Shown here: positions 2,480 through 29,500 of the stretch, one piece after another | How positions within the stretch are numbered: the first letter of the stretch is position 1 | Layout of the letters: each line of letters starts with the position of its first letter | IMG/VR virus record: IMGVR_UViG_2915242197_000001 | Location: 1 to 34,740 of that record | From: a virus | Length of the DNA stretch: 34,740 bases | Direction: 5' to 3' (one strand) | The notes under the pieces: model-generated | The model's database searches: none | Seen by the model: the letters and a program-made list of their open reading frames with translations, nothing else | What the model was told of the DNA's origin: nothing | Program-made: the position numbers and the translations under genes

Positions 2480-2514
2480 CCGTCTAAAAAACCTTGGCTT
2501 TATTGACACTCAAC

Positions 2515-2542
2515 AGAAAGGGGCGAAATCGCCCCTTTTCTT
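2515..2542 (+). terminator. Rho-independent terminator after D
   Basis: AGAAAGGGGCG-AAAT-CGCCCCTTTTCT hairpin followed by a T-rich run. It is nested inside an outer inverted repeat, GACACTCA (2505-2512) / TGAGTGTC (2548-2555). Confidence 0.7.
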
Positions 2543-2580
2543 CGTCCTGAGTGTCTAAAAACTATGTCTAGTTTTCTATG

Positions 2581-2586
2581 TATAAT
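2581..2586 (+). promoter_or_regulatory. Consensus TATAAT -10 hexamer upstream of 2631 gene (possible promoter)
   Basis: A perfect TATAAT lies 45 bp upstream of the ATG at 2631. No good -35 was seen. Confidence 0.35.
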
Positions 2587-2630
2587 AAACCTTGTTTTCA
2601 TTTGATTTTTATACAAAGGGAATTATCGTT

Positions 2631-3332
2631 ATGCGTAACGTCAAAATTCGCGGCCGCCATATCGTCGCATCCATGCGTGCGCCCACTTCGTCGCTGCGGC
2701 TCTGGCTCAACGAAAAGGCCAGAACCGCCACCGGAAAGGATGCCGAATTTATCGGGCAAGTGCGCCAGCTCCTGGACGATCCCGCCGGCCGTGATATAGG
2801 CGCTTGCGGCGCTTGTGACGTGCCGGTGCTACTACCCCAGCCACCCGAGCCTGGCGAGCGCCTGTGCGCCGCGTGCGAGGCCGTGTCGGGGCAAATGGAT
2901 GTGGAAGAAGCGGCCAAGGCCCAGCAGGGAAACAAAAAGCGCTTGATACGCCTATTCGTGGACGGCCAGGAGTTCCCCGGCGAGATAACCGAATTCACCG
3001 CGCCGGCACGGCTGCAGCCCGACTGGCCGCAATGGTTGAGCGTGGGCTATGCGGCCCCGATCGACGCCGCGCAGTTCTTTGGCGAATTCACGCCCGCGCC
3101 AGTGACACCGCTCGATGACCTGGCGCGCGAATACTACGAGCGCACCGAGGCCTACGACCGCACGGTATGTACCGGCCCAATACGCGACGGCAGCATCATG
3201 CCGGCGACCGCGCGCGAGCAAAGCCTTATCAACCGCCACGCCACCGACTTGCTGCGCGAGCTGCGCCAGCGCGCCGAACGCCTGGGCTACACCAGGAACG
3301 ACTTACGCCAGGCCATGAGGAACTACAAATGA
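2631..3332 (+). CDS. Hypothetical protein with C4 zinc-ribbon motif (CGAC-x16-CAAC)
   Basis: The ATG at 2631 is preceded by AAAGGGA. The product contains CGACDVPVLLPQPPEPGERLCAAC, a spacing like TraR/DksA-type fingers. Its stop overlaps the ATG of the recombinase (ATGA at 3329). Confidence 0.65.
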   Translation: MRNVKIRGRHIVASMRAPTSSLRLWLNEKARTATGKDAEFIGQVRQLLDDPAGRDIGACGACDVPVLLPQPPEPGERLCAACEAVSGQMDVEEAAKAQQGNKKRLIRLFVDGQEFPGEITEFTAPARLQPDWPQWLSVGYAAPIDAAQFFGEFTPAPVTPLDDLAREYYERTEAYDRTVCTGPIRDGSIMPATAREQSLINRHATDLLRELRQRAERLGYTRNDLRQAMRNYK

Positions 3333-3976
3333 ATCTCGATATCATCAGCGGCGGCATGCGCATAGGCTACGCCCGAGTTTCGACCGTAGACCAGAATTTA
3401 GACCTTCAACGCGACGCCCTGACGCGCTCGGGATGCGCGCAGATTTACCAGGACAAGGCCAGCAGCCGCACCACCAAGGCGCGCCCGGAGCTGGAGAACA
3501 TGCGCCGCGCGCTGCGGCCTGGCGACACCCTGGTTGTGTGGCGGCTCGATCGACTGGGCGGCAACGTCAACGACCTAATCACCATCGTCAACGAATTGAT
3601 GGCCGCCGGCATTGAGTTTGAAAGCCTGACCGAAAGCATAGACACCAAGACGCCGCACGGCCGCATGTTCTTTACCGTCATGGCGGCTATGAACCAGTAC
3701 CGGCTCGATGTCATCCATGAAAACACGATGGCCGGATTGAAGGCGGCCAGGGCGCGCGGCCGCGTCGGCGGGCGGCCGCCGGCGCTCGATGAAAAGGGCG
3801 TGAGCGACGCCAAGGCGATGATTTCCGGCGGCATGACGATGGCCGATGTTGCCGCGCGCCTGAACATCAGCCGCGCGACGCTGTACAACACGCTGAACCG
3901 GGCCGAGGCCGCAGACGCAAAAACGGCCGCGAGTGCGGCCGAGGTAAAGGGGACGAAGAAAAAGAAAGCTGGTTAG
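3329..3976 (+). CDS. Small serine recombinase (resolvase/invertase family)
   Basis: It has the N-terminal catalytic motif MRIGYARVSTVDQNLDLQ, then RLDRLGGN, and a C-terminal HTH (MTMADVAARLNISRATLYNTL). An alternative start is at 3356. The longer track ORF starting at 3167 is upstream read-through. Confidence 0.9.
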   Translation: MNLDIISGGMRIGYARVSTVDQNLDLQRDALTRSGCAQIYQDKASSRTTKARPELENMRRALRPGDTLVVWRLDRLGGNVNDLITIVNELMAAGIEFESLTESIDTKTPHGRMFFTVMAAMNQYRLDVIHENTMAGLKAARARGRVGGRPPALDEKGVSDAKAMISGGMTMADVAARLNISRATLYNTLNRAEAADAKTAASAAEVKGTKKKKAG

Positions 3977-4632
3977 AAGACGCGGGAAATTTTCGACTGG
4001 CAGAATCCGATAACCTCTATCGAATCGCCGCCTTCGGGCGGTATCACATCAACCGCGTAAGAGGTATTTTCATAGCTTACGCGGGTTGCCCCTCGTACCA
4101 TGCGCTGCAACCTGGCGACGCGCAGCACGTCACCAAAGCGCACCAGGTAGACGCCATCCGTGTTGCGCGGGCGGCGATCGATCACCATGTATTGACCGTC
4201 ATCGATCGTGCCAAGCATCGCGTCACCGCATGCGCGCACGATCATGGTTTCGCCGGCGGATAGCCCTTGTTCATCCATGAGCGCGCGCGGCACCGTGACG
4301 AACGAGGGCGCGCTCGCGCCGGCTACCAGGTACGTGCGCATATCGAACAGCGGCAAGGCAATGCCGCCGGAATCTATCCCTTCTGTAATGGTGTTTTCGA
4401 CATCCTCCGTTGTAAACCCACCACGCCCTAGTATCAGCCAGTCAAGGCTGCACGCCTTACGAATTGCAATCTTTATGCACTCCGCAATCGGCGTTGTTTC
4501 GCGCGACTTCCAAACGGCTGGCGCGCTCTTGGATATCTCCAAGTACGCAGCCAGCTCTATGTCTTTCTGGACGCCTACCGCCAGCTTCATTCTGTCCACC
4601 ACGGCGGCGACGTCGATCTTTTCGTTGTCCAT
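3973..4632 (-). CDS. CI-type prophage repressor: N-terminal HTH plus C-terminal LexA/S24-like domain with degenerate catalytic residues
   Basis: The ATG at 4632 is more likely than the track's TTG start at 4653. The C-terminal half aligns by eye to the S24 fold: GDAM where LexA and lambda CI have G(D/M)SM, and LRVARL where they have V(T)VKRL / FTFKKL. The gene is divergent from an RHH gene. Confidence 0.8.
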   Translation of the reverse strand: MDNEKIDVAAVVDRMKLAVGVQKDIELAAYLEISKSAPAVWKSRETTPIAECIKIAIRKACSLDWLILGRGGFTTEDVENTITEGIDSGGIALPLFDMRTYLVAGASAPSFVTVPRALMDEQGLSAGETMIVRACGDAMLGTIDDGQYMVIDRRPRNTDGVYLVRFGDVLRVARLQRMVRGATRVSYENTSYAVDVIPPEGGDSIEVIGFCQSKISRVF

Positions 4633-4692
4633 TGTTCTTAGAAAAAGTTTCAAAAAGTAATCTCAACCTAATGCTCGCCAGCAAATAACGGG

Positions 4693-4754
4693 TTACAATT
4701 TACATATTGCAACACAGTGACACACACTATTACATTATGCAAACGACAATGCAA
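4693..4754. promoter_or_regulatory. Immunity switch region with repeated operator-like motif TTACATWWTGCAA
   Basis: TTACATATTGCAA (4700-4712) and TTACATTATGCAA (4730-4742) lie 30 bp apart, with related TTACAA (4693-4698) and ACAATGCAA (4746-4754). The region sits between the divergent repressor and RHH genes. Confidence 0.5.
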
Positions 4755-4901
4755 TCGAAACCTACCCGCGTACCGATCCCGTTAAGCGAGAAAGAACGCA
4801 AGCAACTCAAGGGCATGGCGGCAAAGGAGATTCGTAGCGAATCTGCGATGGCGCGCATTATCTATCTCGCTGGCCTGAAGCAACTTTCCGAAAAGAAGTA
4901 G
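4737..4901 (+). CDS. Ribbon-helix-helix protein, Cro/Apl-equivalent by position
   Basis: RVPIPLSEKERKQLKGMAAKEIRSESAMARIIYLAGL fits a beta-strand/helix/helix RHH pattern. It is the first gene of the rightward early operon. The start (4737 or 4749) is uncertain and no clear SD was seen. Confidence 0.6.
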   Translation: MQTTMQSKPTRVPIPLSEKERKQLKGMAAKEIRSESAMARIIYLAGLKQLSEKK

Positions 4902-4980
4902 TTTTCCTATCTACATTTCCGTTTGACAACAAGTAGAAAGGGCTGGGGAGCGCCTTCTACATGACCAGGAAAAACACACT

Positions 4981-5250
4981 ATGAGCATGAGAATTTCTAT
5001 CCCCTGCCCCCATTGCGACGCCCGTGCAACCGCACGCAGCAGCCGGCAACTATCTAAAACCCTTCGGGAAATCTACTACCAATGCACCGACGTGGAATGC
5101 GGCCACACCTTCGTCGCCAGCCTGGAAGCCACGCGCACGCTGTCGCCATCCTCCAAGCCGCGAACCGAAGTGCGCTTGCCTCTGTCGCCGGCTGTCGTGC
5201 ACCGAGTAATGCACCAGCTCGAATTACAGGGATTAACCCCTAGCACATGA
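4981..5250 (+). CDS. ogr: Ogr/Delta-family zinc-finger late transcription activator
   Basis: CPHC-x22-CTDVEC matches the Ogr CX2CX22CX4C signature exactly. It is a small basic protein. Confidence 0.85.
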   Translation: MSMRISIPCPHCDARATARSSRQLSKTLREIYYQCTDVECGHTFVASLEATRTLSPSSKPRTEVRLPLSPAVVHRVMHQLELQGLTPST

Positions 5251-5273
5251 TACTAACTCAATACTGAATCAAT

Positions 5274-5597
5274 ATGAATACAATAGCACTCTCGCCCCTG
5301 GCGCTCGCGTTCCTGCAACAACACGAAGGCGAACACCTAGCGCACGAAACCGAGCGCCTGGTGGAGCGCTGCACCGCCCACCTGGTAGAAACCGGCATGT
5401 GCTCGGCCAGCTCGGCGCGCGATATCACCATGCAAGCGCTGGGCGAGCTGAGCGCGCGCCGCCGCATCGGGCATATCGATTGCACCAGGACCACCAGCTT
5501 TACTCTGTTCCTGATCGACTCCCAGGGCCAGCGCCGCGCCCTCACGATCGCCGCCCTTCTCGCCCTGATCGAAGCGCCGGTAGTCACCGCCGCCTAA
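5274..5597 (+). CDS. Hypothetical protein (107 aa)
   Basis: Third-codon positions are GC-rich, like the neighbouring genes. It lies in the early operon between ogr and the primase-helicase. Confidence 0.55.
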   Translation: MNTIALSPLALAFLQQHEGEHLAHETERLVERCTAHLVETGMCSASSARDITMQALGELSARRRIGHIDCTRTTSFTLFLIDSQGQRRALTIAALLALIEAPVVTAA

Positions 5598-5691
5598 ACC
5601 ACTTTCCACCAGTACCACCAGCATCGCCGCCACCAGGCGGCGATATGCCGTGCGCCTGGCAGTAAACCGAGCATCAAGGAATCACCGCAAC

Positions 5692-8436
5692 ATGGCAGAC
5701 ATAAACAAACTGAAACGCCTTATCGACTTGCACGACCTGGCCGACCGCCTGGGCCTCAAGCGCGGACCAGGTGGAGAAAAGGCGCTGTACCACTCACCGC
5801 AACACCCGGACAAAAGCCCATCCCTCTCGATCTTCGTTGACCATCCCAAGAACGGGACCGGCTGGAAGGACCACAGCCAGGAAGGCGTGGGCGGCTCTTG
5901 CATCGACCTGGTTATGCTCAAGTTCGGCATGTCGGCCAGCGAGGCAATGAAGTGGTTGCACGAGTCCTACGCCATTCCATTCGACAAACCAGAACAGCCC
6001 CAGGAGCAGCGCCCTAAAAGTACCCTCGATTTCATCGCTGAAAAATGCGTCAACGGCCGGGAGAAGGCGCGCGAGTATCTGAAAGGCCGAGGTATCAGCG
6101 ATGCCGCGATCGATGCCGGCATGAAGGCCAAGACGATCGGCTACAACGACTGGACCAGCACGGCTATCAGCGAGGGTAATGTGGGGTTCGGCGGTCCTGC
6201 TGCAGCCTTCCTCGTCCGCGATCCTGATACGCTGCAAGTGGTAGGCGTCGATATGCGTTTCTTCGATCCTGAGCGCAACGGGAAAGTAAAGACCCAAAGC
6301 CACGGCACGAAGGACGGCATAGGCTGGACCGTGGACTGGCGCAAGCTGCAACGCGCCGAGCGCGTCTACATCGTAGAAAGCTCGATCAACGCCCTATCGA
6401 TCGACTCTTGCAATATCCCGAAGGCGGCCAGCTTTGCTATTCGCGGAATCGGCAATGCTGAGCTGATCGACTTCGCTTTCCTCAAGGGTAAACAGGTCAT
6501 CATTTGCATGGACAATGACGAGCCATTCCCCGATGGCCACCACCAGGCCGGCCGCCGTCCTGGCCCCGAAGCCGCGTGGGCGCTTTACGACCGCCTTACA
6601 GCCATGAACATCAGCGCCGTGATCGTTGACCAGACTGAATGGAAGAACAGCGACGGCGAGAACATCAACGACGCCAACGACGTGCTGGACGAGCTGGGCG
6701 TCGACGCGCTGCGCAAGTTCCTGGACGTGTTTGAACCGTGGCTGATCGCCGGCCAGGTTGGCGACGCCACCAGGAAGGGCAAGCCGCGCGTCTACCTGCC
6801 GGCGCATGACTTCGCCCAATACTGGAAATTCCGCACCCGCCTGGATTTCACCAGTTACATCGGCCGCATGACCAAGAACGACGAAACCGGCGAAGAAACG
6901 CCGGTTCTGCAAGACCTGGCCGGCTTCCGCATCGCATCGCTGAGCCGGGTTTCCGTCGCCAGCGCTACGGCCACCATGACCGGCGACAAGGACCAATCCC
7001 CAAGCGTCTACTTTGCCGTGACGGTGCAGACCCCGCGCCACGGCGCGCAGCTCACCCGCAAGGTGCTGCTTGACGACCAGCTCCACAACACGCAGCAATG
7101 GTCGAAGTTCGGCCCGATCTGGAAGCCGGCCGAGTTCTCGCGTATGGTCAACATCCTGGAACGTACCGCGCACATCGGCGCGCGCAACGCGGCGAACTAC
7201 GTGGGCCTGGCCTGGCGCGATGGCGAGCTGATCGTCAACGAAGGGCCGGACTGCTATTTCACCGAGGGAGAGAAGCAATGCCCCTACTACAACCTCACAT
7301 TCCCGTCAGGACCGGTCCAGGACGCGGCGAAAGTGATCCGGGCATACCAGACCACCTTTACCAACAACGCCGCCTCTACGGCCCTCGTATGGGCCTTGGG
7401 CGGCCATATGAAAACGCTGCTTGGATTCTGGCCCCACATGACCCTCCAGGCTGACAAAAGCTCCGGTAAGTCCACCCTGATTAAGCGCCTGGAGCGCACC
7501 ATCAATTTCACGATGTTTTCCGGCCAGTCGCTGCAAACCGAATTCCGCCTGTTGACCAGCATCAGCCACACCAGCCACCCGGTAGGATGGGAAGAGCTGA
7601 GCGCCCGCCGGCAAGACGTGATCGACAAGGCCGTGGGCCTCCTGCAAGAAAATTACCAATACACCGTGACCAAGCGTGGCGCGGAAATGACCGAGTACCT
7701 GTTGTCCGCGCCGGTCATGCTCGCCGGCGAGGACGTGCCGGTGCGTAGCCTCCTGGGCAAGATCGTGCGTACCACCTTGACCGGGAAAAAAGGACCGCTG
7801 ATGCCGGAAGACCTGCCGCGCTTCCCTGTGCGCCAGTGGCTGCAATTCCTGGCCGGCCTGAACAAGATGGACGTGGTAGCGAAGTACGCCGAGCTGCGCG
7901 ACCACTGCCTGGCGAAAAGCCGCGCCGGCGGCAGCGACGAGGGCGCGAAGCGTATGGCCGGCAACTACGCGGCCGTCATGCTGGCTTGGCGCTACCTGGC
8001 CGAGTTCGCCGGCATGGACTACCGCGAGGGCGACTTCGGGCAAGACCTCCTGAAAGAGATGAATTCCCACCTGTCCGAGTCCAGCGCCGACCGCTCGCCG
8101 TGGGTTTGGATCATGGAAACCGTGCTGTCTGAGATCGACGCCGGCAGCTTCAAGCACCCGTACAAGTTCGACAATATCGATGGTAGCGATGTCCTGTTGA
8201 TCCGTACCGGCCACATCATGGACCACATCGCGCACTCAAGCCATTTGCGCGACAAGTGGAACAGCTTGCCAGTCAAGACGCCGGCCGTGTTCAAACGCCA
8301 GCTTGAGCAAGCCGAGGTGATCGTCGGCGGCGAGGTGGAGCGCACCATTTTGACCAGGCGCGTAGGCCACCTGACGGCGCTGTCCCTGGAAGTCCTGGGC
8401 AAGTTCGGCCTGTCCGTATCGATTCGCAAAGACTGA
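5692..8436 (+). CDS. Replicative primase-helicase fusion (DnaG-like N-terminus, Toprim, C-terminal Walker-A NTPase)
   Basis: The ATG at 5692 follows AAGGA. The N-terminus resembles the DnaG zinc-binding region (HSPQHPDKSPSLSIF ... GGSCIDLVM). A Toprim-like acidic motif is present (YIVESSINALS ... VIICMDNDEPFPDG). Walker A is ADKSSGKST. Confidence 0.8.
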   Translation: MADINKLKRLIDLHDLADRLGLKRGPGGEKALYHSPQHPDKSPSLSIFVDHPKNGTGWKDHSQEGVGGSCIDLVMLKFGMSASEAMKWLHESYAIPFDKPEQPQEQRPKSTLDFIAEKCVNGREKAREYLKGRGISDAAIDAGMKAKTIGYNDWTSTAISEGNVGFGGPAAAFLVRDPDTLQVVGVDMRFFDPERNGKVKTQSHGTKDGIGWTVDWRKLQRAERVYIVESSINALSIDSCNIPKAASFAIRGIGNAELIDFAFLKGKQVIICMDNDEPFPDGHHQAGRRPGPEAAWALYDRLTAMNISAVIVDQTEWKNSDGENINDANDVLDELGVDALRKFLDVFEPWLIAGQVGDATRKGKPRVYLPAHDFAQYWKFRTRLDFTSYIGRMTKNDETGEETPVLQDLAGFRIASLSRVSVASATATMTGDKDQSPSVYFAVTVQTPRHGAQLTRKVLLDDQLHNTQQWSKFGPIWKPAEFSRMVNILERTAHIGARNAANYVGLAWRDGELIVNEGPDCYFTEGEKQCPYYNLTFPSGPVQDAAKVIRAYQTTFTNNAASTALVWALGGHMKTLLGFWPHMTLQADKSSGKSTLIKRLERTINFTMFSGQSLQTEFRLLTSISHTSHPVGWEELSARRQDVIDKAVGLLQENYQYTVTKRGAEMTEYLLSAPVMLAGEDVPVRSLLGKIVRTTLTGKKGPLMPEDLPRFPVRQWLQFLAGLNKMDVVAKYAELRDHCLAKSRAGGSDEGAKRMAGNYAAVMLAWRYLAEFAGMDYREGDFGQDLLKEMNSHLSESSADRSPWVWIMETVLSEIDAGSFKHPYKFDNIDGSDVLLIRTGHIMDHIAHSSHLRDKWNSLPVKTPAVFKRQLEQAEVIVGGEVERTILTRRVGHLTALSLEVLGKFGLSVSIRKD

Positions 8437-8447
8437 GCGGGGAAACG

Positions 8448-8708
8448 ATGACCGAGCAAACCCGCTGCATCATGTGCAAACATTTCACCCTGCGGCCGCG
8501 CACCAGGACCGGCAGCAACGAGCCATTGCGCGAGCAGGACCGCCAGTACAGCAAAACGGGCCTGGGCCGCTGTGCGCACACCCAGGAAAGCTACCGCTGG
8601 CACTCGGCCGAGTGTCCCAGGGAATGCGCCAAGGCCGTGCCGATCGACGCCGACCAGGTACAGGCCCGCCGCGCCTACATCGCCAATATCGCATTGGTAT
8701 CAACATAG
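8448..8708 (+). CDS. Hypothetical Cys-rich small protein (86 aa)
   Basis: It starts 11 nt after the primase-helicase stop, following GGGGAAAC. It carries CIMC plus three further Cys. Confidence 0.5.
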   Translation: MTEQTRCIMCKHFTLRPRTRTGSNEPLREQDRQYSKTGLGRCAHTQESYRWHSAECPRECAKAVPIDADQVQARRAYIANIALVST

Positions 8709-8765
8709 TAGCGATTGCCGTTATCTTGATAGCGTGTTGATATCGAAGCGATAGCAGCATGATAG
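8687..8765. repeat. 11-bp-phased GATA/TATC repeat array (locus A), candidate centromere-like site
   Basis: GATA occurs at 8728, 8739, 8750 and 8761, an exact 11-bp period (tTGATAgcgtg tTGATAtcgaa gcGATAgcagc atGATAgaaaa). It is preceded by the inverse TATC at 8687 and 8698 (11 bp apart) and at 8722. Confidence 0.7.
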
Positions 8766-8770
8766 AAAAA

Positions 8771-8794
8771 GGGCCGTCCCGGAGGTGACGGCCC
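8771..8794. terminator. Bidirectional rho-independent terminator between convergent genes
   Basis: GGGCCGTC-CCGGAGGT-GACGGCCC is flanked by AAAAA (5') and TTTCATTT (3'). A second hairpin, CGCCGCA-CTCC-TGCGGCG, lies at about 8806-8823. Confidence 0.65.
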
Positions 8795-8833
8795 TTTCAT
8801 TTCCACGCCGCACTCCTGCGGCGCTGTCTCCTT

Positions 8834-9121
8834 CTAGGTATTGAGTTGGTCCAGTTTAGCGACTTCGTCCAGTACCCAATTTTGATATTCCTCAACCATA
8901 GCGCGGGTTTTGACCAGGCCTTCGTCGCTGCCATCATCGTGTATCGCTTGAAGCACCGTGGTCATGCCCAGCGCTTGCGATCGGAAGTTTTGTAGGATCG
9001 CGCGCCGGCGTTCCATAAAATGGATTTTCAAATCGTCACGCATCGGCACCTTCATATCCAGGATGTCGCGGTTGGTCTGGATCATAACGGCCAGCTCTTC
9101 CGGCTTGATCGATATTGCCAT
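8834..9121 (-). CDS. Hypothetical protein (95 aa), last gene of par operon, visibly lower GC
   Basis: A strong SD (AGGGGGAAG) lies 5' of the ATG at 9121. The start is 8 nt downstream of the RHH gene. The composition looks helical. Confidence 0.65.
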   Translation of the reverse strand: MAISIKPEELAVMIQTNRDILDMKVPMRDDLKIHFMERRRAILQNFRSQALGMTTVLQAIHDDGSDEGLVKTRAMVEEYQNWVLDEVAKLDQLNT

Positions 9122-9129
9122 GCTTCCCC

Positions 9130-9423
9130 CTATCGGTTTGCTTCGCGTTCTTCGGCCGCGACGAACCGCGACACCGCCAGGGCGAAGCCGGCCGCGCGGC
9201 TCAAGCCCAGCGCCTTCGCCTTCTTGTCCAGCTCGGCCAGCAGCTTCGCATCGATCGTCAGGCTGATAGGCTTCTTGCGGCCACCGTCCACCACTGGCGC
9301 CGTAGTGCGCGCATGCGCGCCGGCGTCAGGAGCGGCGGCGATCTTCGCTTGTACGTCCGCTTCGGTCACGCCTGGTTTCAAGGTAATGCCGCCGCCTGGT
9401 TTTGCCGTCATGTTTGATTTCAT
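9130..9423 (-). CDS. Ribbon-helix-helix DNA-binding protein, ParG-like centromere-binding/autoregulator candidate
   Basis: The C-terminal KPISLTIDAKLLAELDKKAKALGLSRAAGFALAVSRFV fits an RHH, and the N-terminal tail looks long and flexible. It lies immediately downstream of parA. Confidence 0.65.
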   Translation of the reverse strand: MKSNMTAKPGGGITLKPGVTEADVQAKIAAAPDAGAHARTTAPVVDGGRKKPISLTIDAKLLAELDKKAKALGLSRAAGFALAVSRFVAAEEREANR

Positions 9424-9446
9424 ATTAATACCTCTCTAATACTGTG

Positions 9447-9474
9447 TTGATCTTATCTTGATATCAAGGTGATG
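9447..9474. repeat. TTGAT array locus B with palindrome TTGATATCAA
   Basis: GAT occurs at 9449, 9460 and 9471 (11-bp phase). The palindrome is at 9458-9467 and is followed by ggTGATG. Confidence 0.7.
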
Positions 9475-9479
9475 TTAGG

Positions 9480-10238
9480 TTAATCGACGGCGACCACATC
9501 ACCCGGTTTCAGCTTGTCACTGGCAACGATGCGGCCGGCGGGGTGTTCCTCGTCAGGCACCAGGCGAACGTAAGCCGGCACATGCTCGCCGTTCGCTGTT
9601 GCCACCGCTTGCTCCACCAGCAGATCGATTTCTAACTTCGCCTCTGGCGGTGCGCCCTTGTATTCCGCGATGTAGCGGCCCTGGGCGCTGGCGTGAGAAA
9701 TCGCCTTGCGATCGCCCAGGCGGGCCGTGATGACCGGGAAACCAGATTCGTACACCGTCGCTATCGCGGCGTAGTTATCGCCCTCCTGGCCGGCCGGATC
9801 GGCTTTGTTCAGGAACGCAATGACCTTGAAATCTTTCACGCCCAGCATTTCACGCAGCAGCTTGACGGTGTTCTCAAAGGCCCAAACCTCATACGAGCGG
9901 GGAGCAAAAGGAAACAGTACAACATCGCAGAGCGTCAGCGCCGCACGCATGGCCCCGTTGTCATTCGCCGCCACGTCGATAACGACATCATCGAACTGGC
10001 CGGCTTTCAACAGGACTTGCGCACGCAGCGACGGACCATCCGGCAGCGGCGTAGCCTCGATGCCTGGCAAGCCGGCTTCAATGCGCGCGGTCAGGGACAA
10101 GAACAGGTGTTTCTGTTCATCGTCGCCATCGACGCCCCAGGCGCGGCGGCCCATGCGAGCCAGGCCGGTAATCAGTTGCGTGGACGTGGTGGACTTGCCA
10201 GCGCCGCCTTTTTTGTTCACTACCGCGTAAATTGCCAT
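9480..10238 (-). CDS. parA: ParA-family partition ATPase (deviant Walker A)
   Basis: It starts MAIYAVVNKKGGAGKSTT, carrying the KGGxGKS/T deviant Walker A. At 252 aa it is in the size range of type Ib ParA/ParF proteins. Confidence 0.9.
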   Translation of the reverse strand: MAIYAVVNKKGGAGKSTTSTQLITGLARMGRRAWGVDGDDEQKHLFLSLTARIEAGLPGIEATPLPDGPSLRAQVLLKAGQFDDVVIDVAANDNGAMRAALTLCDVVLFPFAPRSYEVWAFENTVKLLREMLGVKDFKVIAFLNKADPAGQEGDNYAAIATVYESGFPVITARLGDRKAISHASAQGRYIAEYKGAPPEAKLEIDLLVEQAVATANGEHVPAYVRLVPDEEHPAGRIVASDKLKPGDVVAVD

Positions 10239-10272
10239 GATATTTATTTCCTATTAAAAATATAGCTGTTCG

Positions 10273-10301
10273 ATTGTATGGTAATACTTATTTGATATCA
10301 A
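10273..10301 (-). promoter_or_regulatory. Sigma70-type promoter for parA: TTGATA-N17-TACAAT (minus strand), -35 embedded in palindrome TTGATATCAA
   Basis: On the minus strand, TTGATA (10301-10296) is followed by a 17-nt spacer and TACAAT (10278-10273). The palindrome is at 10292-10301 and is followed by ctTGATG (GAT at 10294 and 10305, 11 bp apart). Confidence 0.65.
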
Positions 10302-10321
10302 CTTGATGGTGTAACGCCGTG

Positions 10322-10684
10322 TTACTGCGACGCTTTCGGCGTATGGTCTTCTAGTGTTTTAAGCAACGCTTCTTGCTCAAGTATCGCATCAACGATCGCA
10401 TGACGGACGTGCATAACTTCGCCTGGCGTGCCGTTGCCATTCTTGACCAGGCGAGCCACATGCGCGGCGTTCTCCAGGTCGAACCGCGTAGCCTGGTGCG
10501 GATCGGCGGTGCGCGGGTTGATCGCCTCGCCGTCCTCGATGTCGAAGGCCAGCGGCAAGCCTTCAACCACCACCACATAGGCTTGCGCCAGCACCACGCC
10601 GCGCAGCGCCTCGCCGGCACGCTGATAGCGGGCGATTGCTTCGCGGGTTTCCTTGAGTACAGCGGTCCAGTCGTTCATGTTCAT
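10322..10684 (-). CDS. Hypothetical protein (120 aa)
   Basis: A good SD (GAGGGGG) precedes the ATG, and third-position GC is high. I do not recognise any motif. Confidence 0.65.
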   Translation of the reverse strand: MNMNDWTAVLKETREAIARYQRAGEALRGVVLAQAYVVVVEGLPLAFDIEDGEAINPRTADPHQATRFDLENAAHVARLVKNGNGTPGEVMHVRHAIVDAILEQEALLKTLEDHTPKASQ

Positions 10685-10757
10685 GTTTCCCCCTCATAGC
10701 GCCCGCTGTGGCGGGCTGGTTGATTCCGGTAAGCCCGCCACCTGGCGAGCTGGCGGG

Positions 10758-10976
10758 TTAGAAAAAGTAGTACGCGACGTTGCCGCATTCCTCGTCCTGG
10801 TCTTCGCTGTCGAAGCGCACACCAGGAACGGCGGCCATGATCGCCTTGGCCTTGGCAAAGGCCGCCGCACCGTCCACCAGTACCGAGAACATGCCGGCGT
10901 TGATGAACGTGATTTCAGCGGTCACACCGTCTTTTTTCAGCGCGGCGGCCATGCGTTCCTGGATGAGATTCAACAT
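10758..10976 (-). CDS. Hypothetical protein (72 aa)
   Basis: An SD (AAGGGA) precedes the ATG at 10976. It has its own TTGATA-N17-TACTAT promoter. Confidence 0.6.
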   Translation of the reverse strand: MLNLIQERMAAALKKDGVTAEITFINAGMFSVLVDGAAAFAKAKAIMAAVPGVRFDSEDQDEECGNVAYYFF

Positions 10977-11009
10977 TGTTTTCCCTTAAAAGTTCATGCG
11001 ACAGACTCA

Positions 11010-11038
11010 ATAGTATCTTAATCTCATGTTGATATCAA
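11010..11038 (-). promoter_or_regulatory. Sigma70-type promoter TTGATA-N17-TACTAT (minus strand), -35 inside palindrome TTGATATCAA
   Basis: On the minus strand, TTGATA (11038-11033) is followed by a 17-nt spacer and TACTAT (11015-11010). Confidence 0.6.
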
Positions 11039-11101
11039 CATGATGTATAAATAATTGTGGTTTGATTGCATCTTGATGTTAATACCAACTTGATATATAC
11101 G
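11029..11101. repeat. TTGAT array locus D (palindrome plus phased TGATG/TTGATT/TTGATG/TTGATA); possible rightward promoter TTGATG-N17-TATACG
   Basis: GAT occurs at 11031, 11042, 11064 and 11075, all on an 11-bp lattice, plus 11092 off-lattice. TTGATG (11073-11078) and TATACG (11096-11101) are separated by 17 nt and face the repeat-rich non-coding region. Confidence 0.6.
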
Positions 11102-11110
11102 GGTGCGCGA

Positions 11111-11287
11111 CGCCGGCGGCCGCAGACCTGGCCACCCGGATCTGCCCTCGATCGGCGCTCGATGCCGAGGCGGGCTGCAGGAAGCGCCGGCGGCCGCCGA
11201 CCTGGTGCGCGATCCAGGACACCGGCCGGCCTCGATCGGCGCTCGATGCCGAGGCCGGCTGCAGCGCCAGGCCGGCCGCTACCTGGT
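11111..11287. repeat. GC-rich interleaved direct repeats (modules A and B, roughly 74-84 bp register)
   Basis: Module B is 35 bp, CCTCGATCGGCGCTCGATGCCGAGGC(G/C)GGCTGCAG, at 11146-11180 and 11230-11264 with one mismatch. Module A, CGCCGGCGGCCGC(A/C)GACCTGG, is at 11111 and 11185, with a partial copy at about 11266-11287. CCTCGATCGG occurs again at 11356. Confidence 0.85.
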
Positions 11288-11469
11288 GCGCGTCATGCCG
11301 GCGGCCGCCGGCGCGATCGCGGCCGCCGAGCAGCTGGTCGACCAGGTGTTTGCGGGCCTCGATCGGGACCAGGCGACGCCGGCCAGGCCGGAAAAGCCGG
11401 CCGGAAAGAGCCAGGGTAGGGCGACAGTCCCGGCGCTGTCGATACGGCACAGGGAAAACCGTGCGGCCG

Positions 11470-11770
11470 TGGATTTGCTGCTGATTTTGAGCTAAGTATC
11501 TGATTTATATAGAAACAGCATCCCCGGATGACTGCCGTTTTTCCCCGGATCGGCCCACTTTGTCCACGCCGCCACTTTCCGCCCCTTTACCTCTCTCTCT
11601 CTCTAAATCATTGAAAAGAAAGAAGAAAAGACAAGCAGGGAAGAAAGGAAGTGCGCGCGCCCATCCACAGGCCAAAGGCGTTTTTCCCCCTGTTTTTCCC
11701 CCTGCCTATTTTTTAATCCCCCGATTCCAGGGCTTCCCCCGGATTTTTCCGGGGATCGTGGGGGATAAAT
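11470..11770. other. Origin-like non-coding block: AT-rich patch, (CT)7, polypurine tract, TCCCCGGAT-type repeats
   Basis: An AT-rich patch lies at 11470-11520. TCCCCGGAT is at 11521-11529 and 11542-11550 (21 bp apart). (CT)7 is at 11591-11604 and a purine run at 11613-11651. GTTTTTCCCCCT is in tandem at 11680-11703. TCCCCCGAT is at 11717 and TCCCCCGGAT at 11735-11744, with an inverted copy at 11748-11757 forming the hairpin CCCCGGA-TTTT-TCCGGGG. Confidence 0.5.
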
Positions 11771-12737
11771 TTTCTCGACAAATCAAGCAGTTACATGCTA
11801 AAGCGACCTCATTCCACCGATCCACGGCCCGCGCTGCCTATGGTCCCGCCACGGCGTAACGACTCTTTCTTTCCCGGCTCGCCTTTCTCGCCCCTCCAAA
11901 ACGCATCAAAACCGCCTCTAACGTGCGTCATGTTGCGTCGGGCATTTACCCCTGATTTCGGCCGAAAGCCGCACCAGGGGCCGCTATAGCCCTGCTGCTG
12001 GCTGCATCAAAAAGGGGGTATCAAGCACAAGAGGCTCGCGGGCGGGAGGGTTCGGCAACCGCAAGCTAACCGCGTCCCTGGTACGCCTCCCAGGCCATAG
12101 GAGGCCCGTAGCGCCGTTTTCAGCCTTGGGACGTGAAAAGGGGCGGCCGCACACCAAAAACGCGCCACAGGCCCGGAGAACGCGCCCCAGGGGCATCGCC
12201 GGCGGCCCGGAACATGAACAACTTGCGGCCCTGGCCGTAGGGTTGCGCCAACAAAGGAACCCGCCGGCCCTATCGGCCAGCGGGCGGCGCTGGTCTGCCG
12301 GCCTTCCTGGCCGCTGGCCGCAACCAGGCCGCCGGCCAGTCCTGGCGCGCGCCTTGGCCGGCGGCTTGCCGCCTGTCCAACTTCGCCGCCTTCGCGCCGA
12401 AGCCGGCCAGGATGCGTTAAACGAGTGAGCGGGGAGTACGGAAAGAATGAAGAAACCCCGGTGCGCTGACGGCCGCCGGCGCGAAGTCGGCCGCCGTCCT
12501 GCAAGCCTGGGGTTATGGGCGCGTGAATGACTAGCGCCGAGCTGGCCGCCGCGTCCCGAGAGGGCGCGGGGTTTCGGGCAGCGTGAACGGGGCGCAGGGT
12601 CCGCAGCCCGCGCGGGGTTTGCGCGGGTGAGCCGGTAGGAGCCGGCCCGGTAGGGCTTGGCCGCTTGCGGCCAACTCCGTAGCCCGGCGAAGACCTGTGC
12701 AACCGTGTGTTGGCGTAAGCGTCACCCTTGTTGAGTT

Positions 12738-12808
12738 TTCCTTGTGCGCGCAGCGCAGTCTGGTTTTGCTTTTCCCAGTCTTCCTTGTGCGCCCAAAGGG
12801 CGCAGTCT
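12738..12808. repeat. 43-bp direct repeat pair, each with a small hairpin
   Basis: TTCCTTGTGCGC is at 12738-12749 and 12781-12792. Each copy is followed by ...GCGCAGTCT (12753-12761 and 12800-12808). The second copy contains the hairpin TGCGCCC-AAA-GGGCGCA. Confidence 0.8.
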
Positions 12809-12919
12809 CGACTTGTCTACCCCGCGATCGTGGAACGTGAGGAACAATCTAATAGGGCAAATAAATTGCGAAATTGGGCGGGAACCCGCGCCAGCACTGG
12901 CTTTCTTCGTTGCGAGGGT

Positions 12920-13033
12920 TACGCACCGTGGTGCGTAGTGCTACGCACGGCGGTGCGTAGAGTCACGCACCTGGGCGGTAAAAGGTGCAGGTTTACCCGT
13001 TTTCGTCAAGAGTCTACGCACGGCGATGCGTAG
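12920..13033. promoter_or_regulatory. Three palindromic sites TACGCAC-N4-GTGCGTA (operator-like)
   Basis: The sites are TACGCACCGTGGTGCGTA (12920-12937), CTACGCACGGCGGTGCGTAG (12941-12960) and CTACGCACGGCGATGCGTAG (13014-13033), plus a half-site TCACGCAC (12963-12970). The centres of the first two are 22 bp apart. Confidence 0.7.
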
Positions 13034-13101
13034 TACCATGCACGTTAGCAGTAAACCTATGTCGTTGAATCGGTAAACCTATGTTCCCTGAGCGGCAAAC
13101 C
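12989..13101. repeat. Iterons GTAAACCT(ATGT) upstream of the RepL-like gene
   Basis: GTAAACCTATGT is at 13051-13062 and 13073-13084 (22 bp apart). GCAAACCT is at 13094-13101 (21 bp further). An inverted copy, AGGTTTAC, is at 12989-12996. A TATGAT -10-like hexamer lies at 13104-13109. Confidence 0.75.
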
Positions 13102-13142
13102 TGGTATGATGATGCCACCGAATCACTACAGGCGCAATCATC

Positions 13143-13691
13143 ATGGTTAGCAAAGCAAAGAACATCACCCTACCCGCCGACACCGAGGAAACGCGGGGCA
13201 ATAAAACCCAGGGCTGGTTGCAAACTGAGAAGTCAGCACACCAGGCCATGTGGAAGCTGGGCATTAAGCACCCGATGGCGTTGGCGGTTCTGCATTTCAT
13301 GGTTTCCAAGCTGTCGAAGGGAACAAACGGCGTTGTCATCAGTGCTGCCGCCCTGGCGCGGCAAATGGGCCTTGCGCCTCGCACAGTGCAAAATACGATC
13401 ACCGTTTTGCGAGACTGCAAATTCGTCCAGGTACTCAAATCCGGCAACTGCAACGTGTACATCATCAACTCGCGCGTGGCATGGCAGGGCGAGCGTGGGA
13501 TGCGTTTCTCTGTCTTCAACACCGCGATGGTGATTGACGAGCAAGAGCAGACGCAAACCATTGAGGAACTGGAAGCCGAGGCAGACGAACAAATGCACGT
13601 GCCGGTTATGACCTTCAACGAAGAAATCCAACTCGACGCGATCGACGCGCCGCCGGCGCTGCCGTCCCAGGGAAGCTTGTTGCCGGAATAA
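13143..13691 (+). CDS. RepL-like winged-helix replication/maintenance protein
   Basis: The pattern ...ALAVLHFMVSKLSKGTNGVVISAAALARQMGLAPRTVQNTITVLRDCKFVQVLKSGNCNVYIINSRVAWQG resembles RepL-family proteins, which have an HTH, then a wing, then 'vY.iNp'. It has an acidic C-terminal tail and is preceded by iterons. Confidence 0.6.
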   Translation: MVSKAKNITLPADTEETRGNKTQGWLQTEKSAHQAMWKLGIKHPMALAVLHFMVSKLSKGTNGVVISAAALARQMGLAPRTVQNTITVLRDCKFVQVLKSGNCNVYIINSRVAWQGERGMRFSVFNTAMVIDEQEQTQTIEELEAEADEQMHVPVMTFNEEIQLDAIDAPPALPSQGSLLPE

Positions 13692-13698
13692 GCGATAC

Positions 13699-13719
13699 GC
13701 GCCGGTACACCGCCGGCGC
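13699..13719. terminator. Hairpin between convergent RepL-like gene and portal gene
   Basis: GCGCCGG-TACACCG-CCGGCGC. There is no U-tract on either side. Confidence 0.35.
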
Positions 13720-23047: not shown

Positions 23048-23797
23048 TTAATGCAGCCGGCCCGCCGCAACCTTGTGGATTCGGGCGTTTTCTTCGCAAC
23101 CTACCCATTTCAAGCCTGCTTCCTGGGCCGCTACCAGGTGCGTGCCGCAGCCGGCGAACAGGTCCAGCACCGTGCCGCCTTCCGGCACCAGGCGAACGAC
23201 CTGGCGCGCTACCTCGATCGGCTTCTCGGTCAAATGCTTTTTCGGGAAGTCCAGCGCCGTGCTGAAAACGCCAGGCAAGTACACCGAGGCGTCTTTGTCC
23301 ATATCCCCCTTGCTGGCCCACAGGATGAATTCGGCCTGTTGCTTGAAACCGCCCTTGCGTGGACGCGAGCGGCCGGTGGTCTTGTCCCACACTGCGATAC
23401 CGCGCAGCGTAAAGCCGGCGGCCTGGATCACGTCCGTCAGCGTCGCCATTTGCCGCCAGTCGATATAGCAGACCAGGAGGCCGCCCGGTTTCATTGCGCG
23501 CTGTGCGGCGATCAACCAGGAGTGACACCAGAACGACCAGGAGCGCTGGTCCATGTTGTCGAAGTTGAAGTCCTCGTATTCCATCGCCGTAGCGTTGTTG
23601 ATGTACTTCTGTCCGGTGGACTGCTTGCGCGTGCCGGAATGCAGACCGCCCGAAGAATACGGCGGATCGGTGAAAAGCATATCGATCGAATTGCGCGGCA
23701 GCGTGCGCACGAATTCCAGCGCGTCTACGTTGTGCAACTTGTTCAGATAATCGGTGGCGTCCTGCTTTGCTTTCTTCGTTGCTGCGATCTTTTTCAC
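23048..23797 (-). CDS. DNA methyltransferase, beta-class (motif IV DPPY before motif I FAGCGT); probable N6-adenine
   Basis: It contains MLFTDPPYSSGG ... TEKPIEV ... VLDLFAGCGT. It is the only minus-strand gene inside the tail operons. Confidence 0.85.
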   Translation of the reverse strand: MKKIAATKKAKQDATDYLNKLHNVDALEFVRTLPRNSIDMLFTDPPYSSGGLHSGTRKQSTGQKYINNATAMEYEDFNFDNMDQRSWSFWCHSWLIAAQRAMKPGGLLVCYIDWRQMATLTDVIQAAGFTLRGIAVWDKTTGRSRPRKGGFKQQAEFILWASKGDMDKDASVYLPGVFSTALDFPKKHLTEKPIEVARQVVRLVPEGGTVLDLFAGCGTHLVAAQEAGLKWVGCEENARIHKVAAGRLH

Positions 23798-23882
23798 TTC
23801 CTGAATTTCCTATAAATGGTGAGGGAACGCCCGCAGCCAAAGGCCGCGATAGCGCATACCTGCCATTCTCGGAAATGTTTTG

Positions 23883-25968: not shown

Positions 25969-26494
25969 CCTGCTGCCACCGAACGCCACGCGGCTAGAGC
26001 GCGTCCTGGCCGAAGTCTGCGGCGTCATCGGCGATTTGCCGGTGACGATCCGCGAGATTATGGACCCGGACAAATGCCCCGTAGCGCTGCTGCCGTGGCT
26101 GGCCTGGGCCGTCCATGTGGACGCCTGGGACGATGCCTGGAGCGAAGCGCAAAAGCGCGCCGTCATCAAATCGGCCTACCAGGTCCATGTACAGAAAGGC
26201 ACCGTGGCGTCCGTCGAATCCGCCCTGGCGGCCCTGGGCGTGACTGCTGATGTCGTTGAGTGGTGGCAGCAATCGCCGCGCGGCGTGCCTTACACCTTCC
26301 GCCTCGACGTGGACACGGAAAACGTGGGCATGACGGAAGTTTTCGCGCAGTCGATCGAACGCCAGGTGGCGGCCGTCAAGCCAGCCCGTTCACATTTCAC
26401 CGTCCAGTTTATCGCCAAGACCCGCCCCGCAATCAGCGTAGGCGTGGCGGTACAGGACGTAATCATTACCAGCGTCTACCCAAAACAGAAATGA
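25958..26494 (+). CDS. I: Tail/baseplate protein I
   Basis: MALNLLPPNATRLERVLAEV...LLPWLAWAVHVDAWDD.W is characteristic of gpI. Confidence 0.85.
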   Translation: MALNLLPPNATRLERVLAEVCGVIGDLPVTIREIMDPDKCPVALLPWLAWAVHVDAWDDAWSEAQKRAVIKSAYQVHVQKGTVASVESALAALGVTADVVEWWQQSPRGVPYTFRLDVDTENVGMTEVFAQSIERQVAAVKPARSHFTVQFIAKTRPAISVGVAVQDVIITSVYPKQK

Positions 26495-27192
26495 GCCAAA
26501 CCTACTATTCCCTAATAACCGCCGCCGGCCTGGCCGAGCTGGCGGACGCGCAAGTAGCGCGCGAAGTTGTCCCGTTCACCCATATCGCTATCGGGGACGG
26601 CAACGGCCATGCAACCGCCCCGGACGAGAACACCGCCGGCCTGGTAAACAAGGTCTACCAGGTGGAAATCAGCAGCATCAAGAAAGACCCGACGCACCCC
26701 ACCTGGTTCATTTTTGAAGCGGCCGTACCGGAAGACGTGGGCGGCTGGACCGCGCGCGAGCTGGCCCTGATCGGTGGCCGCGTACCAGGCAAGGTCATGG
26801 CCGTCAGCAACTACCCGGCGGTGGAGAAGGTGGCGGCCGCCGACGGCAGCGCCCGCGCAATGATCGTGCGTTTTTACATGGAATACGTCAACGGGGCCGT
26901 TATCAGCCTCTCGGTCAATCCCCAGGCCTACGCCACGGCGCAATCGGTGTTGCAGTCGATCGCGGACCACATGGCGGCGCTGGACCCTCACCCGCAGTAT
27001 TTGACCAAGGCCGAGGCCGACGCCTTCTACGACACGATCGGCCTGGCCGCTGACGCGATCCAGCAGGACGCGGCCCGCCTGTCCAGTCACATCGCGGCGG
27101 CCGATCCGCACCCGCAGTACGTCAACGGCGCCAGGGCGGCTGCAGCAAATGCCAACCGCTGGGCCGAAGAATTTTTTAACGCAGCAGGATAG
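26491..27192 (+). CDS. Short tail-fibre protein carrying only the gpH-type N-terminal baseplate-anchor domain
   Basis: MSQTYYSLITAAGLAELADAQ...IAIGDGNG...PDENTAGL...EVGGWTARELALIG parallels the N-terminus of P2 gpH as I recall it. It is only 233 aa long. The C-terminus has two DPHPQY motifs. Confidence 0.75.
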   Translation: MSQTYYSLITAAGLAELADAQVAREVVPFTHIAIGDGNGHATAPDENTAGLVNKVYQVEISSIKKDPTHPTWFIFEAAVPEDVGGWTARELALIGGRVPGKVMAVSNYPAVEKVAAADGSARAMIVRFYMEYVNGAVISLSVNPQAYATAQSVLQSIADHMAALDPHPQYLTKAEADAFYDTIGLAADAIQQDAARLSSHIAAADPHPQYVNGARAAAANANRWAEEFFNAAG

Positions 27193-27207
27193 AAAGGAAA
27201 CACATCA

Positions 27208-27531
27208 ATGGCAGTGAAAAGCGGCGATTTGGGCGGCGGCACCCTGGAAGCCGGGAAAGAAAAGATCGGCTATGCGTGCGCCGCGCCGGCCGTGGCGGCA
27301 ACGATCACCGTCTCGTTTTGCAACAAGTCCCTGGGGCCGGTGAAAGTCCGCCTGGCGCTCGGCCCTGGCGCGGACAGCAAGGCGGCCGGAACGCGGTTCT
27401 TGGAATTCGATTCCGAGGTAGGAAAGACACTGGAGCGCACCGGCATCGCCGTTTCTGCGGGAACCAACGTGTTCGTGCAATGCGACCAGGCAAACACAGA
27501 TTACGCCATCTACGGCTATGAAAAACAGTAA
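27208..27531 (+). CDS. Hypothetical small protein (107 aa) in fibre module
   Basis: A good SD (AAAGGA) is present and the composition is beta-rich. Confidence 0.6.
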   Translation: MAVKSGDLGGGTLEAGKEKIGYACAAPAVAATITVSFCNKSLGPVKVRLALGPGADSKAAGTRFLEFDSEVGKTLERTGIAVSAGTNVFVQCDQANTDYAIYGYEKQ

Positions 27532-27541
27532 GGAGTAAGCA

Positions 27542-29236: not shown

Positions 29237-29248
29237 GAAAGGAAGGAA

Positions 29249-29500
29249 ATGGCATCCGGTATTCTCGGAATTCTTAACGGCGTGGGGAGTCTCTCCTACA
29301 CCCCGACAGTAAATTCGCAAGTCCTATTAACCGCCTCTGGCAGTAGCGTTCCCGCAATCAGCATCAATGGCGTCAGCGGCTTGATAGCCTCGCAAGGAGT
29401 GACGTTGAAGTTGTTTGTCGGAGCAAATCAAACCCTGACAGTCGGTACCGTAGCAAGTACTACCGTACTCGTTTCTTGCCTGGAGGAAGAAGCACAATGA
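29249..29500 (+). CDS. Hypothetical small Ser/Thr/Val-rich protein (83 aa)
   Basis: An SD (AAGGAAGGA) precedes the start. A lower-GC stretch begins here. Confidence 0.55.
   Translation: MASGILGILNGVGSLSYTPTVNSQVLLTASGSSVPAISINGVSGLIASQGVTLKLFVGANQTLTVGTVASTTVLVSCLEEEAQ

Follow-up and report, generated by a model that had tools for sequence, protein, structure and literature searches.

The virus record IMGVR_UViG_2915242197_000001 was analyzed over its full length of 34,740 bp (hereafter, the window), which is the whole self-closing contig of an isolate genome, Duganella rivi / Pseudoduganella sp. FT55W. The contig ends in an exact 127-bp overlap, leaving a unit circle of 34,613 bp, and the junction falls inside the tape-measure gene (gene T), whose reading frame is intact across it. 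A complete set of P2-type late genes in P2 order is combined in this DNA with an early region that encodes a serine recombinase, a partition locus, and a RepL-type replication cassette (Table 1). We take the window to be, with a probability of about 0.8, the complete circular genome of a temperate P2-type myophage of Duganella/Pseudoduganella that most likely lysogenizes as a low-copy plasmid, as does phage KS14.

The late genes were identified by tblastn with P2 queries, which matched proteins Q, P, O, N, M, L, X, R, S, V, W, J, I, H, FI, FII, E, T, U, D, and Ogr. The P2 proteins Int, C, Cox, B, A, Old, and Tin gave only chance matches in the window (all E > 0.1), and none of the window open reading frames (ORFs) scanned matched Phage_integrase. 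No tRNAs were found in the window. The assembler broke the circle exactly at the 228-bp tandem repeat of gene T and not at cos, so reads must span the cos-like region, as expected of circular or concatemeric intracellular DNA. The number of repeats in gene T, and hence the length of the tail, may be mis-estimated.

The gene content of a lysogeny switch is present in the early region, in which a CI repressor with an S24 domain is divergent from an Arc-like regulator and Ogr. The CI/S24 repressor would run this switch. An unannotated Ogr/Delta homologue was also noted in KS14 (L001, 3551–3790).

An original prediction, made from the letters of the window without database searches, had described a self-closing P2-type genome in which every late function is recognizable and five plasmid-style elements replace a tyrosine integrase, a Cox-like excisionase, and gpA. 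The results above bear out the closure, the late genes, and the three absences, and profile searches upheld the ParA, RHH (ribbon-helix-helix), RepL (PF05732), Resolvase, and Toprim assignments. Among the five elements, a ~215-aa serine recombinase with the motif GYARVSTVDQ is confirmed by the Pfam Resolvase and HTH_7 (helix-turn-helix) matches, and a ParA with KGGAGKST next to an RHH protein by the ParA_partition and RHH_1 matches. The ~2.1 kb of repeat-dense noncoding DNA corresponds to positions 10977–13142, with ORF 11103–11495 the one possible exception. The replication initiator and the primase fusion stood in part and are treated below.

Table 1. Positions of genes and sites in the window
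Feature	Position	Strand	Evidence or remarks
Tandem repeat, 228 bp, 1.9 copies, 87% identical	20–460 and 34614–34740		inside tape-measure gene
Candidate crossover site (res subsite I), 28-bp palindrome CGTCTAAAAAACC-TT-GGCTTTATTGACA	2481–2508		directly 3' of gpD stop codon
Accessory half-site cluster TGTCTAAAAAC, TAGTTTTCTA, TGTATAATAAACC, GATTTTTATACA	2553–2615		past D-operon terminator hairpin, 5' of recombinase operon
Unknown protein	2634–3332	+	C-terminal 80 aa resemble KS14 gp7 (phrog_27964)
Small serine recombinase, 215 aa, Gin/invertase-like subfamily	3329–3976	+	Resolvase PF00239, E 1.3e-42; HTH_7 PF02796, E 1e-9
CI-type repressor with S24 (LexA-like) self-cleavage domain	3973–4653	-	Phage_CI_repr, E 1e-13; Peptidase_S24, E 9e-7
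Arc-like small regulator	4707–4901	+	divergent from CI, Cro/Cox position; 47–57% identical to KS14/FLC5 Arc-like repressors
Ogr/Delta late-gene activator	4981–5250	+	PF04606, E 1e-22
DnaG-type primase (zinc finger and Toprim) fused to P-loop C-terminal half	5650/5692–8436	+	914–928 aa; Toprim_3
TTGATATCAA palindromes, candidate parS/operator sites	8694, 8737, 9458, 10292, 11029 (span 8694–11038)
RHH (ParG-like) centromere/operator binding protein, predicted	9130–9423	-	RHH_1, E 2.5e-5; phrog_18157
Small ParA partition ATPase (type Ib), deviant Walker A KGGAGKST	9480–10238	-	NCBIfam ParA_partition, E 5e-29
par-type palindromes and promoter-like site	10998–11099
G+C-rich stretch with hairpin repeats	11100–11440		not conserved in relatives
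Block A, candidate origin for primase protein	11445–11846		conserved in KS14, FLC5, and Oxalobacteraceae relatives
cos-like G-rich motif GGGCGGGAGGGTTCGGCAAC	12030–12055 (approximate)		weak alignment to FLC5 cos end
Element B, structured single-strand element, ~165 nt, 9 helices	12538–12705, probably ~12450–12775	+
Origin repeats	12919–13106		20-bp palindromes at 12919, 12941, and 13014; degenerate units; three direct repeats
RepL-family winged-helix replication initiator	13143–13691	+	PF05732, 27.2 bits (cut-off 20.3)
254-aa ORF	23051–23815	+	between gpS and gpV, the P2 orf30 position, a cargo spot
Tail-fibre region, unusual	26260–30284	+

Serine recombinase and its res-like site

The recombinase gene is the last of an operon and is preceded by a gene for an unknown protein, whose stop codon overlaps the recombinase start codon. 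The enzyme has its catalytic domain at the N-terminus and its HTH at the C-terminus, and is 61% identical to gp6 of KS14. A candidate res-like site separates this operon from the gpD gene, the order being gpD stop codon, 28-bp palindrome (site I), terminator hairpin of the D operon, half-sites, and recombinase operon. The palindrome was found at the same position in 12 IMG/VR relatives that have both gpD and the recombinase (recombinases 60–83% identical), and the site is conserved and single-copy in 13 genomes, the window counted. Its central dinucleotide differs among genomes. The layout of the half-sites is invariant in an alignment of 11 genomes and resembles that of a multi-subsite res; the half-site cluster would overlap the promoter of the recombinase operon. 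KS14 and FLC5 have an analogous arrangement, in which the half-site has diverged.

No second crossover-like site was found in the window, nor were inverted repeats found there that bound the tail-fibre genes or any other invertible segment. One crossover site with accessory sites adjoining the gene is the sequence pattern of resolvases, whereas invertases of the Gin/Hin type act on two inverted crossover sites that flank a segment. A res site is recognized by being a single multi-part site in each replicon, and dimer resolution is therefore favored over DNA inversion as the role of this Gin-like enzyme. It would resolve dimers at the res-like site (2481–2615), which lies between the terminator of the tail operon and the enzyme's own operon. 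The earlier suggestion of a multimer resolvase rather than an integrase agrees with this single conserved site, as far as sequence can indicate.

Partition locus and the two candidate replicons

The partition locus has the pattern of type Ib loci, in that its ParA is without an N-terminal HTH, the RHH gene is downstream, and repeated candidate centromere/operator sites are present. These sites are TTGATATCAA palindromes; they occur at either end of the operon, upstream of parA, and in the gap that separates parA from the RHH gene. Allowing at most one mismatch, the window has five copies, all five of them within 8694–11038; at two mismatches there are 16 matches, compared with 5.7 expected. 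Promoter-like hexamers on the minus strand (11010–11082) overlap the site at 11029. The motif occurs at the same places of the par locus in KS14, FLC5, and the relatives L006 and L008, while the par loci of L009 and L005 have other palindromes in its place. Such variation among lineages is expected of sites read by a co-evolving RHH protein. Because the motif is both clustered and conserved, we infer that ParA and the RHH protein would segregate genome copies by means of the TTGATATCAA sites.

The plasmid origin would be a RepL/pHW126-type cassette, consisting of element B, a conserved AT-rich stretch (~12838–12880), 22-bp repeats, direct repeats, and repL. Three 20-bp palindromes of the sequence CTACGCACnnnnGTGCGTAG, with a period of 22 bp, precede repL (0.19 expected by chance in the window), and they are followed by phased direct repeats G(T/C)AAACCT..GT at 13051, 13073, and 13095. 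These origin repeats are conserved in relatives. The RepL-like protein behind 21–22-bp iterons that was originally proposed is thus upheld as to the protein family, by the match to PF05732, and as to the 22-bp period; the units, however, are palindromic, unlike classic asymmetric iterons. The layout of 12538–13691 reproduces that of the REP module described for the plasmids pHW126, pIGRK, and pIGMS31, in which an ssi-like (single-strand initiation) element, a conserved region, four 20-bp repeats, short direct repeats, and rep follow one another (PMC6854812). The 20-bp repeats of this module are separated by 2-bp spacers, and the Rep proteins are related to RepL (PMC6854812; bioRxiv 10.1101/2022.12.05.519187). 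The three plasmids are enterobacterial and 2–3 kb in size, with Rep proteins ~30–35% identical to that of the window. Their ssi is a simple palindrome, as opposed to the 165-nt multi-helix element of the window, and plasmids of the pHW126 type may replicate by rolling circle, by theta, or by both.

Homologues of the window RepL were found on 188 PLSDB plasmids, and one that is 63% identical is named 'replication/maintenance protein RepL' by NCBI. On a 1.3-kb plasmid the homologue is the only annotated coding sequence, and further homologues are on plasmids of 2–3 kb. Others include a Rahnella plasmid 'Rep protein' and proteins of Pseudomonas IncP-type plasmids, one of which is annotated 'rep'. 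The IncP-9 plasmid pWW0 (L020, 638–2284) has a serine recombinase gene (638–1273) beside a RepL-family gene (1730–2284), the same pairing as in the window. Among the phages, KS14 has a RepB-type protein and FLC5 a RepL homologue at this place, and for this reason the Rep gene with its iterons is considered an exchangeable cassette. Comparison at the level of sequence shows exchange of the cassette among lineages, and its function would be that of an origin.

The second candidate replicon belongs to the primase, which is presumed to be the phage's own replication protein. Its N-terminal 350 residues gave a confident AlphaFold2 model with the fold of DnaG/T7-type primases (Foldseek matches to the Aquifex, E. 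coli, and T7 primases, E 8e-11 to 1e-4), and a profile match was obtained to PDB 2au3 (E 3.6e-6). The Walker A motif (GKS) and acidic motifs are invariant among 24 homologues. Residues 350–710 were modeled with a predicted local distance difference test (pLDDT) score below 50, and the sole Foldseek match of the C-terminal half was a weak one to the Cch helicase (E 8e-3). This half may be a helicase; of the Toprim primase/Walker-A helicase fusion first proposed, the primase domains and the Walker A motif are confirmed, and the helicase fold is not. Integrated prophages that encode the same primase were found on megabase contigs of Burkholderia, Paraburkholderia, and Ralstonia.

The primase protein, common to the integrative relatives, would probably act at block A. 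The core of block A is an AT-rich polypyrimidine/polypurine sequence (CTCTCTCT..TTGAAAAGAAAGAAGAAA), flanked by the lineage-specific repeats TTTTCCnCGG and ATCCnCGGA, with the flanking repeat varying by lineage as CCCCGG, CCTCGG, CCACGG, or CCATGG. In the integrated prophage of B. gladioli, block A is again directly 3' of the primase gene and precedes xis/int. We give even odds to block A being the origin used by the primase protein. A cosB role for block A was considered and is less likely, given its position in the integrated relative.

Across the noncoding region as a whole, 10977–13142, reading frames are not conserved. When translated, its matches to relatives are scattered over several frames and both strands, and the G+C content at the three codon positions (GC1/2/3) is flat. 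Hidden protein genes were rejected, with the possible exception of ORF 11103–11495 (130 aa), which is unconserved and has a coding-like GC3. Two hairpin-forming repeats of 35 nt, 97% identical and 84 bp apart, are located at 11146–11180 and 11230–11264.

The cos end of FLC5 has been mapped experimentally and is position 1 of its record (PMC7815583), a point in the interval from block A to rep. The FLC5 cos 19-mer (GGCGCGGAGGGGTGACTGC) resembles the P2 cos (GGCGAGGCGGGGAAAGCAC), and it occurs exactly in KS14 (29431–29449), ~310 bp from block A and within the annotated gp39, which is probably not a gene. A direct search of the window for similarity to the P2 cos gave only chance matches, and beyond the G-rich motif the FLC5/KS14 19-mer was unrecognizable in the window and its close relatives at up to 6 mismatches. 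A P2-type terminase would package the genome from this cos-like site near 12.04 kb.

Element B

Element B is 78–90% identical among relatives, and its conservation exceeds that of the neighboring proteins. Its consensus fold on the plus strand has 48 pairs. In 54 distinct metagenomic copies, 97% of pair cells were paired, compared with 73% after shuffling and 27–49% when partners were slid, and compensatory changes were seen in 37 of the 48 pairs. The G-T/G-U pairs are invariant and exist on the plus strand only, which implies that only this strand folds. The z-score of the DNA fold is -2.9 for the plus strand and -1.25 for the minus strand. A search of Rfam 15 returned only chance matches, both for the whole window (E up to 1) and for 12380–12820 (E up to 10). 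We found no published description of this family in a literature search that was not exhaustive.

A covariance model located element B at the same place in the RepL-bearing sequences L005–L013 and L015, and found it absent from L014, KS14, FLC5, pWW0, and the integrated prophage. Further copies are present in L004 (2693–2857, 3999–4161, and 7896–8057), L018 (5919–6078), and L016 (3936–4084). Its core pattern was detected in 10 contigs of IMG/VR, almost every one from the window's phage family, and in at least 120 metagenome contigs. Matches to noncoding plasmid DNA came from Herbaspirillum (three copies), Massilia, Burkholderia glumae, Paracidovorax, and Eleftheria; judging by these matches, the family is widespread on Betaproteobacterial plasmids. 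In plasmid-like contexts element B occupies short gaps, with the flanking genes mostly on the opposite strand, and a typical order is a parA-like gene, a small membrane protein, element B, and a TraX-like gene 22–26 bp off. In the phage context it is followed on the same strand by hairpins and a T-run, and a further covarying helix precedes it.

Element B has the attributes of an ssi in the broad sense, since structure is confined to one strand, the element adjoins a candidate origin, and it is on the template strand of its neighbors. Work of Nomura in 1991 and of Masai and Arai in 1997 is said to have placed such sites close to the origins of plasmids and in their leading regions. The same locations are given in PMC11541004. 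No sigma-70-like hexamers were found within 12538–12705, nor was a hairpin formed there from -35 and -10 elements as in Frpo promoters, and the multi-helix, G+C-rich fold is unlike the long Frpo hairpin. Our tentative preference, at somewhat less than even odds, is that element B acts as single-stranded DNA on the template (transferred or displaced) strand, either for priming or as a single-strand promoter, and that this phage-plasmid clade took it over as the ssi of a RepL-type origin. Below this reading we rank the possibility, itself doubtful, that element B codes for a new small RNA that is structured and has a terminator of its own.

Relatives and mode of lysogeny

The closest described systems are KS14 (Kisquattuordecimvirus KS14, NC_015273) and FLC5 (NC_055722, same genus). 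In both, the order D, serine recombinase, CI, Arc, Ogr, primase, RHH, ParA, Rep, and portal is that of the window, with identities of 61% for the recombinase, 38–40% for CI, 62–66% for Ogr, 67–68% for the primase, 43% for ParA, 72–74% for the portal, and 69% for TerL. By megablast, 12–23% of the query aligned, at ~73% identity. The window is related to KS14 and appears from this nucleotide similarity to fall outside its genus, for which ~70% similarity genome-wide is required.

KS14 resembles the window in its P2-type virion genes, its want of a tyrosine integrase, the TTGATATCAA palindromes at par, block A, and a Rep gene with 22-bp iterons beside the portal gene. It differs in its Rep, gp37, which is RepB-type with 22-bp iterons of its own and is unrelated to the window RepL; in its proteins, which are 38–72% identical; in its DNA, ~73% similar over 12% of the late region; in having no element B; and in its host, Burkholderia as opposed to Duganella/Pseudoduganella. 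FLC5 is a distant relative that shares the backbone and also has no element B. Beside its portal gene is ORF44, annotated as hypothetical, a RepL homologue of 39% identity, and judging from its sequence FLC5 too has a RepL-type origin, one that its annotation does not record. KS14 DNA has been isolated as a plasmid from lysogens, no integration site was found, and its serine recombinase was argued not to be an integrase (Lynch et al., PMC3091744); the phage is also listed, as KS-14, among phage-plasmids (Pfeifer et al., PMC7969092). The description of KS14 as a P2-like plasmid prophage with a serine recombinase in the original prediction is correct. To the question, raised there, whether the combination of the window matches KS14, the answer is yes for the recombinase, the primase, and ParA/RHH and no for RepL.

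Closer relatives are ten IMG/VR contigs (mostly 20–39 kb) and Scaffold34 of Massilia sp. YIM B02763 (L043), with RepL proteins 59–77% identical and the same synteny. Scaffold34 (35,079 bp) is filled by the relative and has no host flanks; both of its ends are inside phage DNA and join as a circle. Between gpD and CI it carries MqsR/MqsA (4859–5564), and different stability functions appear to fill this slot. Integrative P2-like prophages of Burkholderia and Ralstonia (for example, B. gladioli CP104214 and phage RsoM1USA) have a primase ~74% identical over a C-terminal query of 548 aa, as well as Ogr, tail genes, and block A as in the window, but differ by an Xis and a tyrosine integrase after block A. 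In the integrated B. gladioli relative, the primase is followed by HTH_17 (Xis) and Phage_integrase and then by host genes, and no par, rep, or serine recombinase was found within the stretch seen. With Xis and Int following the same primase there, the plasmid functions of the window occupy the place that integration functions have in its sister phages.

Maintenance as a plasmid is known for other temperate tailed phages. P1 and N15 are kept as plasmids with a partition system and a plasmid replicon, and P1 has dedicated site-specific dimer resolution and separate plasmid and lytic replicons. Their virion modules are unrelated to those of the window; P1 uses the tyrosine recombinase Cre and a type Ia ParAB, and N15 is linear with telomeres.

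The extrachromosomal, partitioned prophage first proposed is largely supported by analogy with KS14, which has the same gene order and is a plasmid in lysogens. Several observations weigh against this reading or parts of it. The circular contig could also stem from excised or replicating phage DNA. Scaffold34 is without any recombinase, meaning that resolution by the recombinase is not universal in the clade, and the best PDB sequence match of the window enzyme is Gin (170 bits, compared with 96 bits for gamma-delta resolvase). The helicase half of the primase fusion gave no Pfam match at E up to 5 and no PDB match by profile search, block A could be a terminase-binding region instead of an origin, and the position of cos in the window is approximate, being based on weak similarity.

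If the recombinase were an integrase, the circular contig would represent excised or induced copies of an integrating prophage. Circular assembly alone does not separate these from a plasmid, and certain phages do integrate by serine recombinases (discussed in PMC3091744). However, the 215-aa enzyme is without the large C-terminal domain of serine integrases, its site has accessory half-sites typical of res, and its relative in KS14 belongs to a plasmid prophage. Integrative relatives rely instead on a tyrosine integrase, ParA/RHH and a plasmid Rep with iterons are encoded in the window, and two isolate assemblies give self-contained contigs without host flanks. We consider integration very unlikely. 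Inversion of a short switch, such as the ~70-bp terminator-bearing segment between site I and the half-sites, is improbable to a lesser degree. The Gin match speaks for this alternative, as do the label 'DNA invertase' that the family has in PHROG, a like annotation in KS14 and FLC5, and the resemblance of the site I half-sites to those of gix/hix, which we take to be AAACC nn GGTTT. Yet the window has a single full palindromic crossover-like site and no inverted repeats around its tail-fibre genes or other segments, the ~45–70 bp from site I to the half-site cluster would probably be very short for synapsis, and the same architecture is seen in 13 genomes, among which no inverted isoform was seen.

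The least probable of the readings considered, to our mind, is that the RepL cassette and ParA/RHH serve lytic or early replication only, the phage persisting by pseudolysogeny or in a carrier state and not by stable maintenance. P1 does use a protein called RepL in lytic replication, but we know of no lytic role for partition systems, and the integrative relatives replicate lytically with neither Rep nor Par. The authors of FLC5 were uncertain about its ability to lysogenize (PMC7815583). The window nevertheless encodes a CI/S24 repressor, a relative carries a toxin-antitoxin pair, and the element is present in two isolate genome assemblies.

Outside these modules, the 254-aa ORF at 23051–23815 has no counterpart in KS14 and no significant match in Pfam, NCBIfam, or PADLOC, the best being a weak one to Mrr_cat (E 0.12); it may be a defense or cargo gene. 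Other small ORFs searched against PADLOC and Pfam likewise gave no match. The tail-fibre region encodes a 310-aa protein that has only the N-terminal collar domain of P2 gpH, followed 3' by ORFs of 107, 564, 83, 158, and 111 aa without family matches, and no gpG-like assembly protein was recognized in this region.

P2-like phages are textbook integrating temperate phages, and members carried as plasmids have been documented mainly through KS14. The window is a divergent new addition to the KS14-type phage-plasmids, a rare but described kind, and the novelty in lifestyle is modest; further work is merited by the conserved res-like site, the layout with two origins, and element B. With two isolate genomes and 20 or more contigs of IMG/VR among the relatives, the solution found in KS14 is that of a sizeable clade reaching into the Oxalobacteraceae, built from exchangeable cassettes: a RepL-type or a RepB-type Rep, and a recombinase or a toxin-antitoxin pair. 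Element B is common to this phage-plasmid clade and to conjugative-type plasmids, and may bear on priming of single-stranded DNA or on early expression. Candidate cis sites, namely res, parS, two origins, and cos, can now be tested, and the integrative sister phages, which differ mainly by Xis and Int, provide a natural system for the switch between integration and plasmid maintenance.

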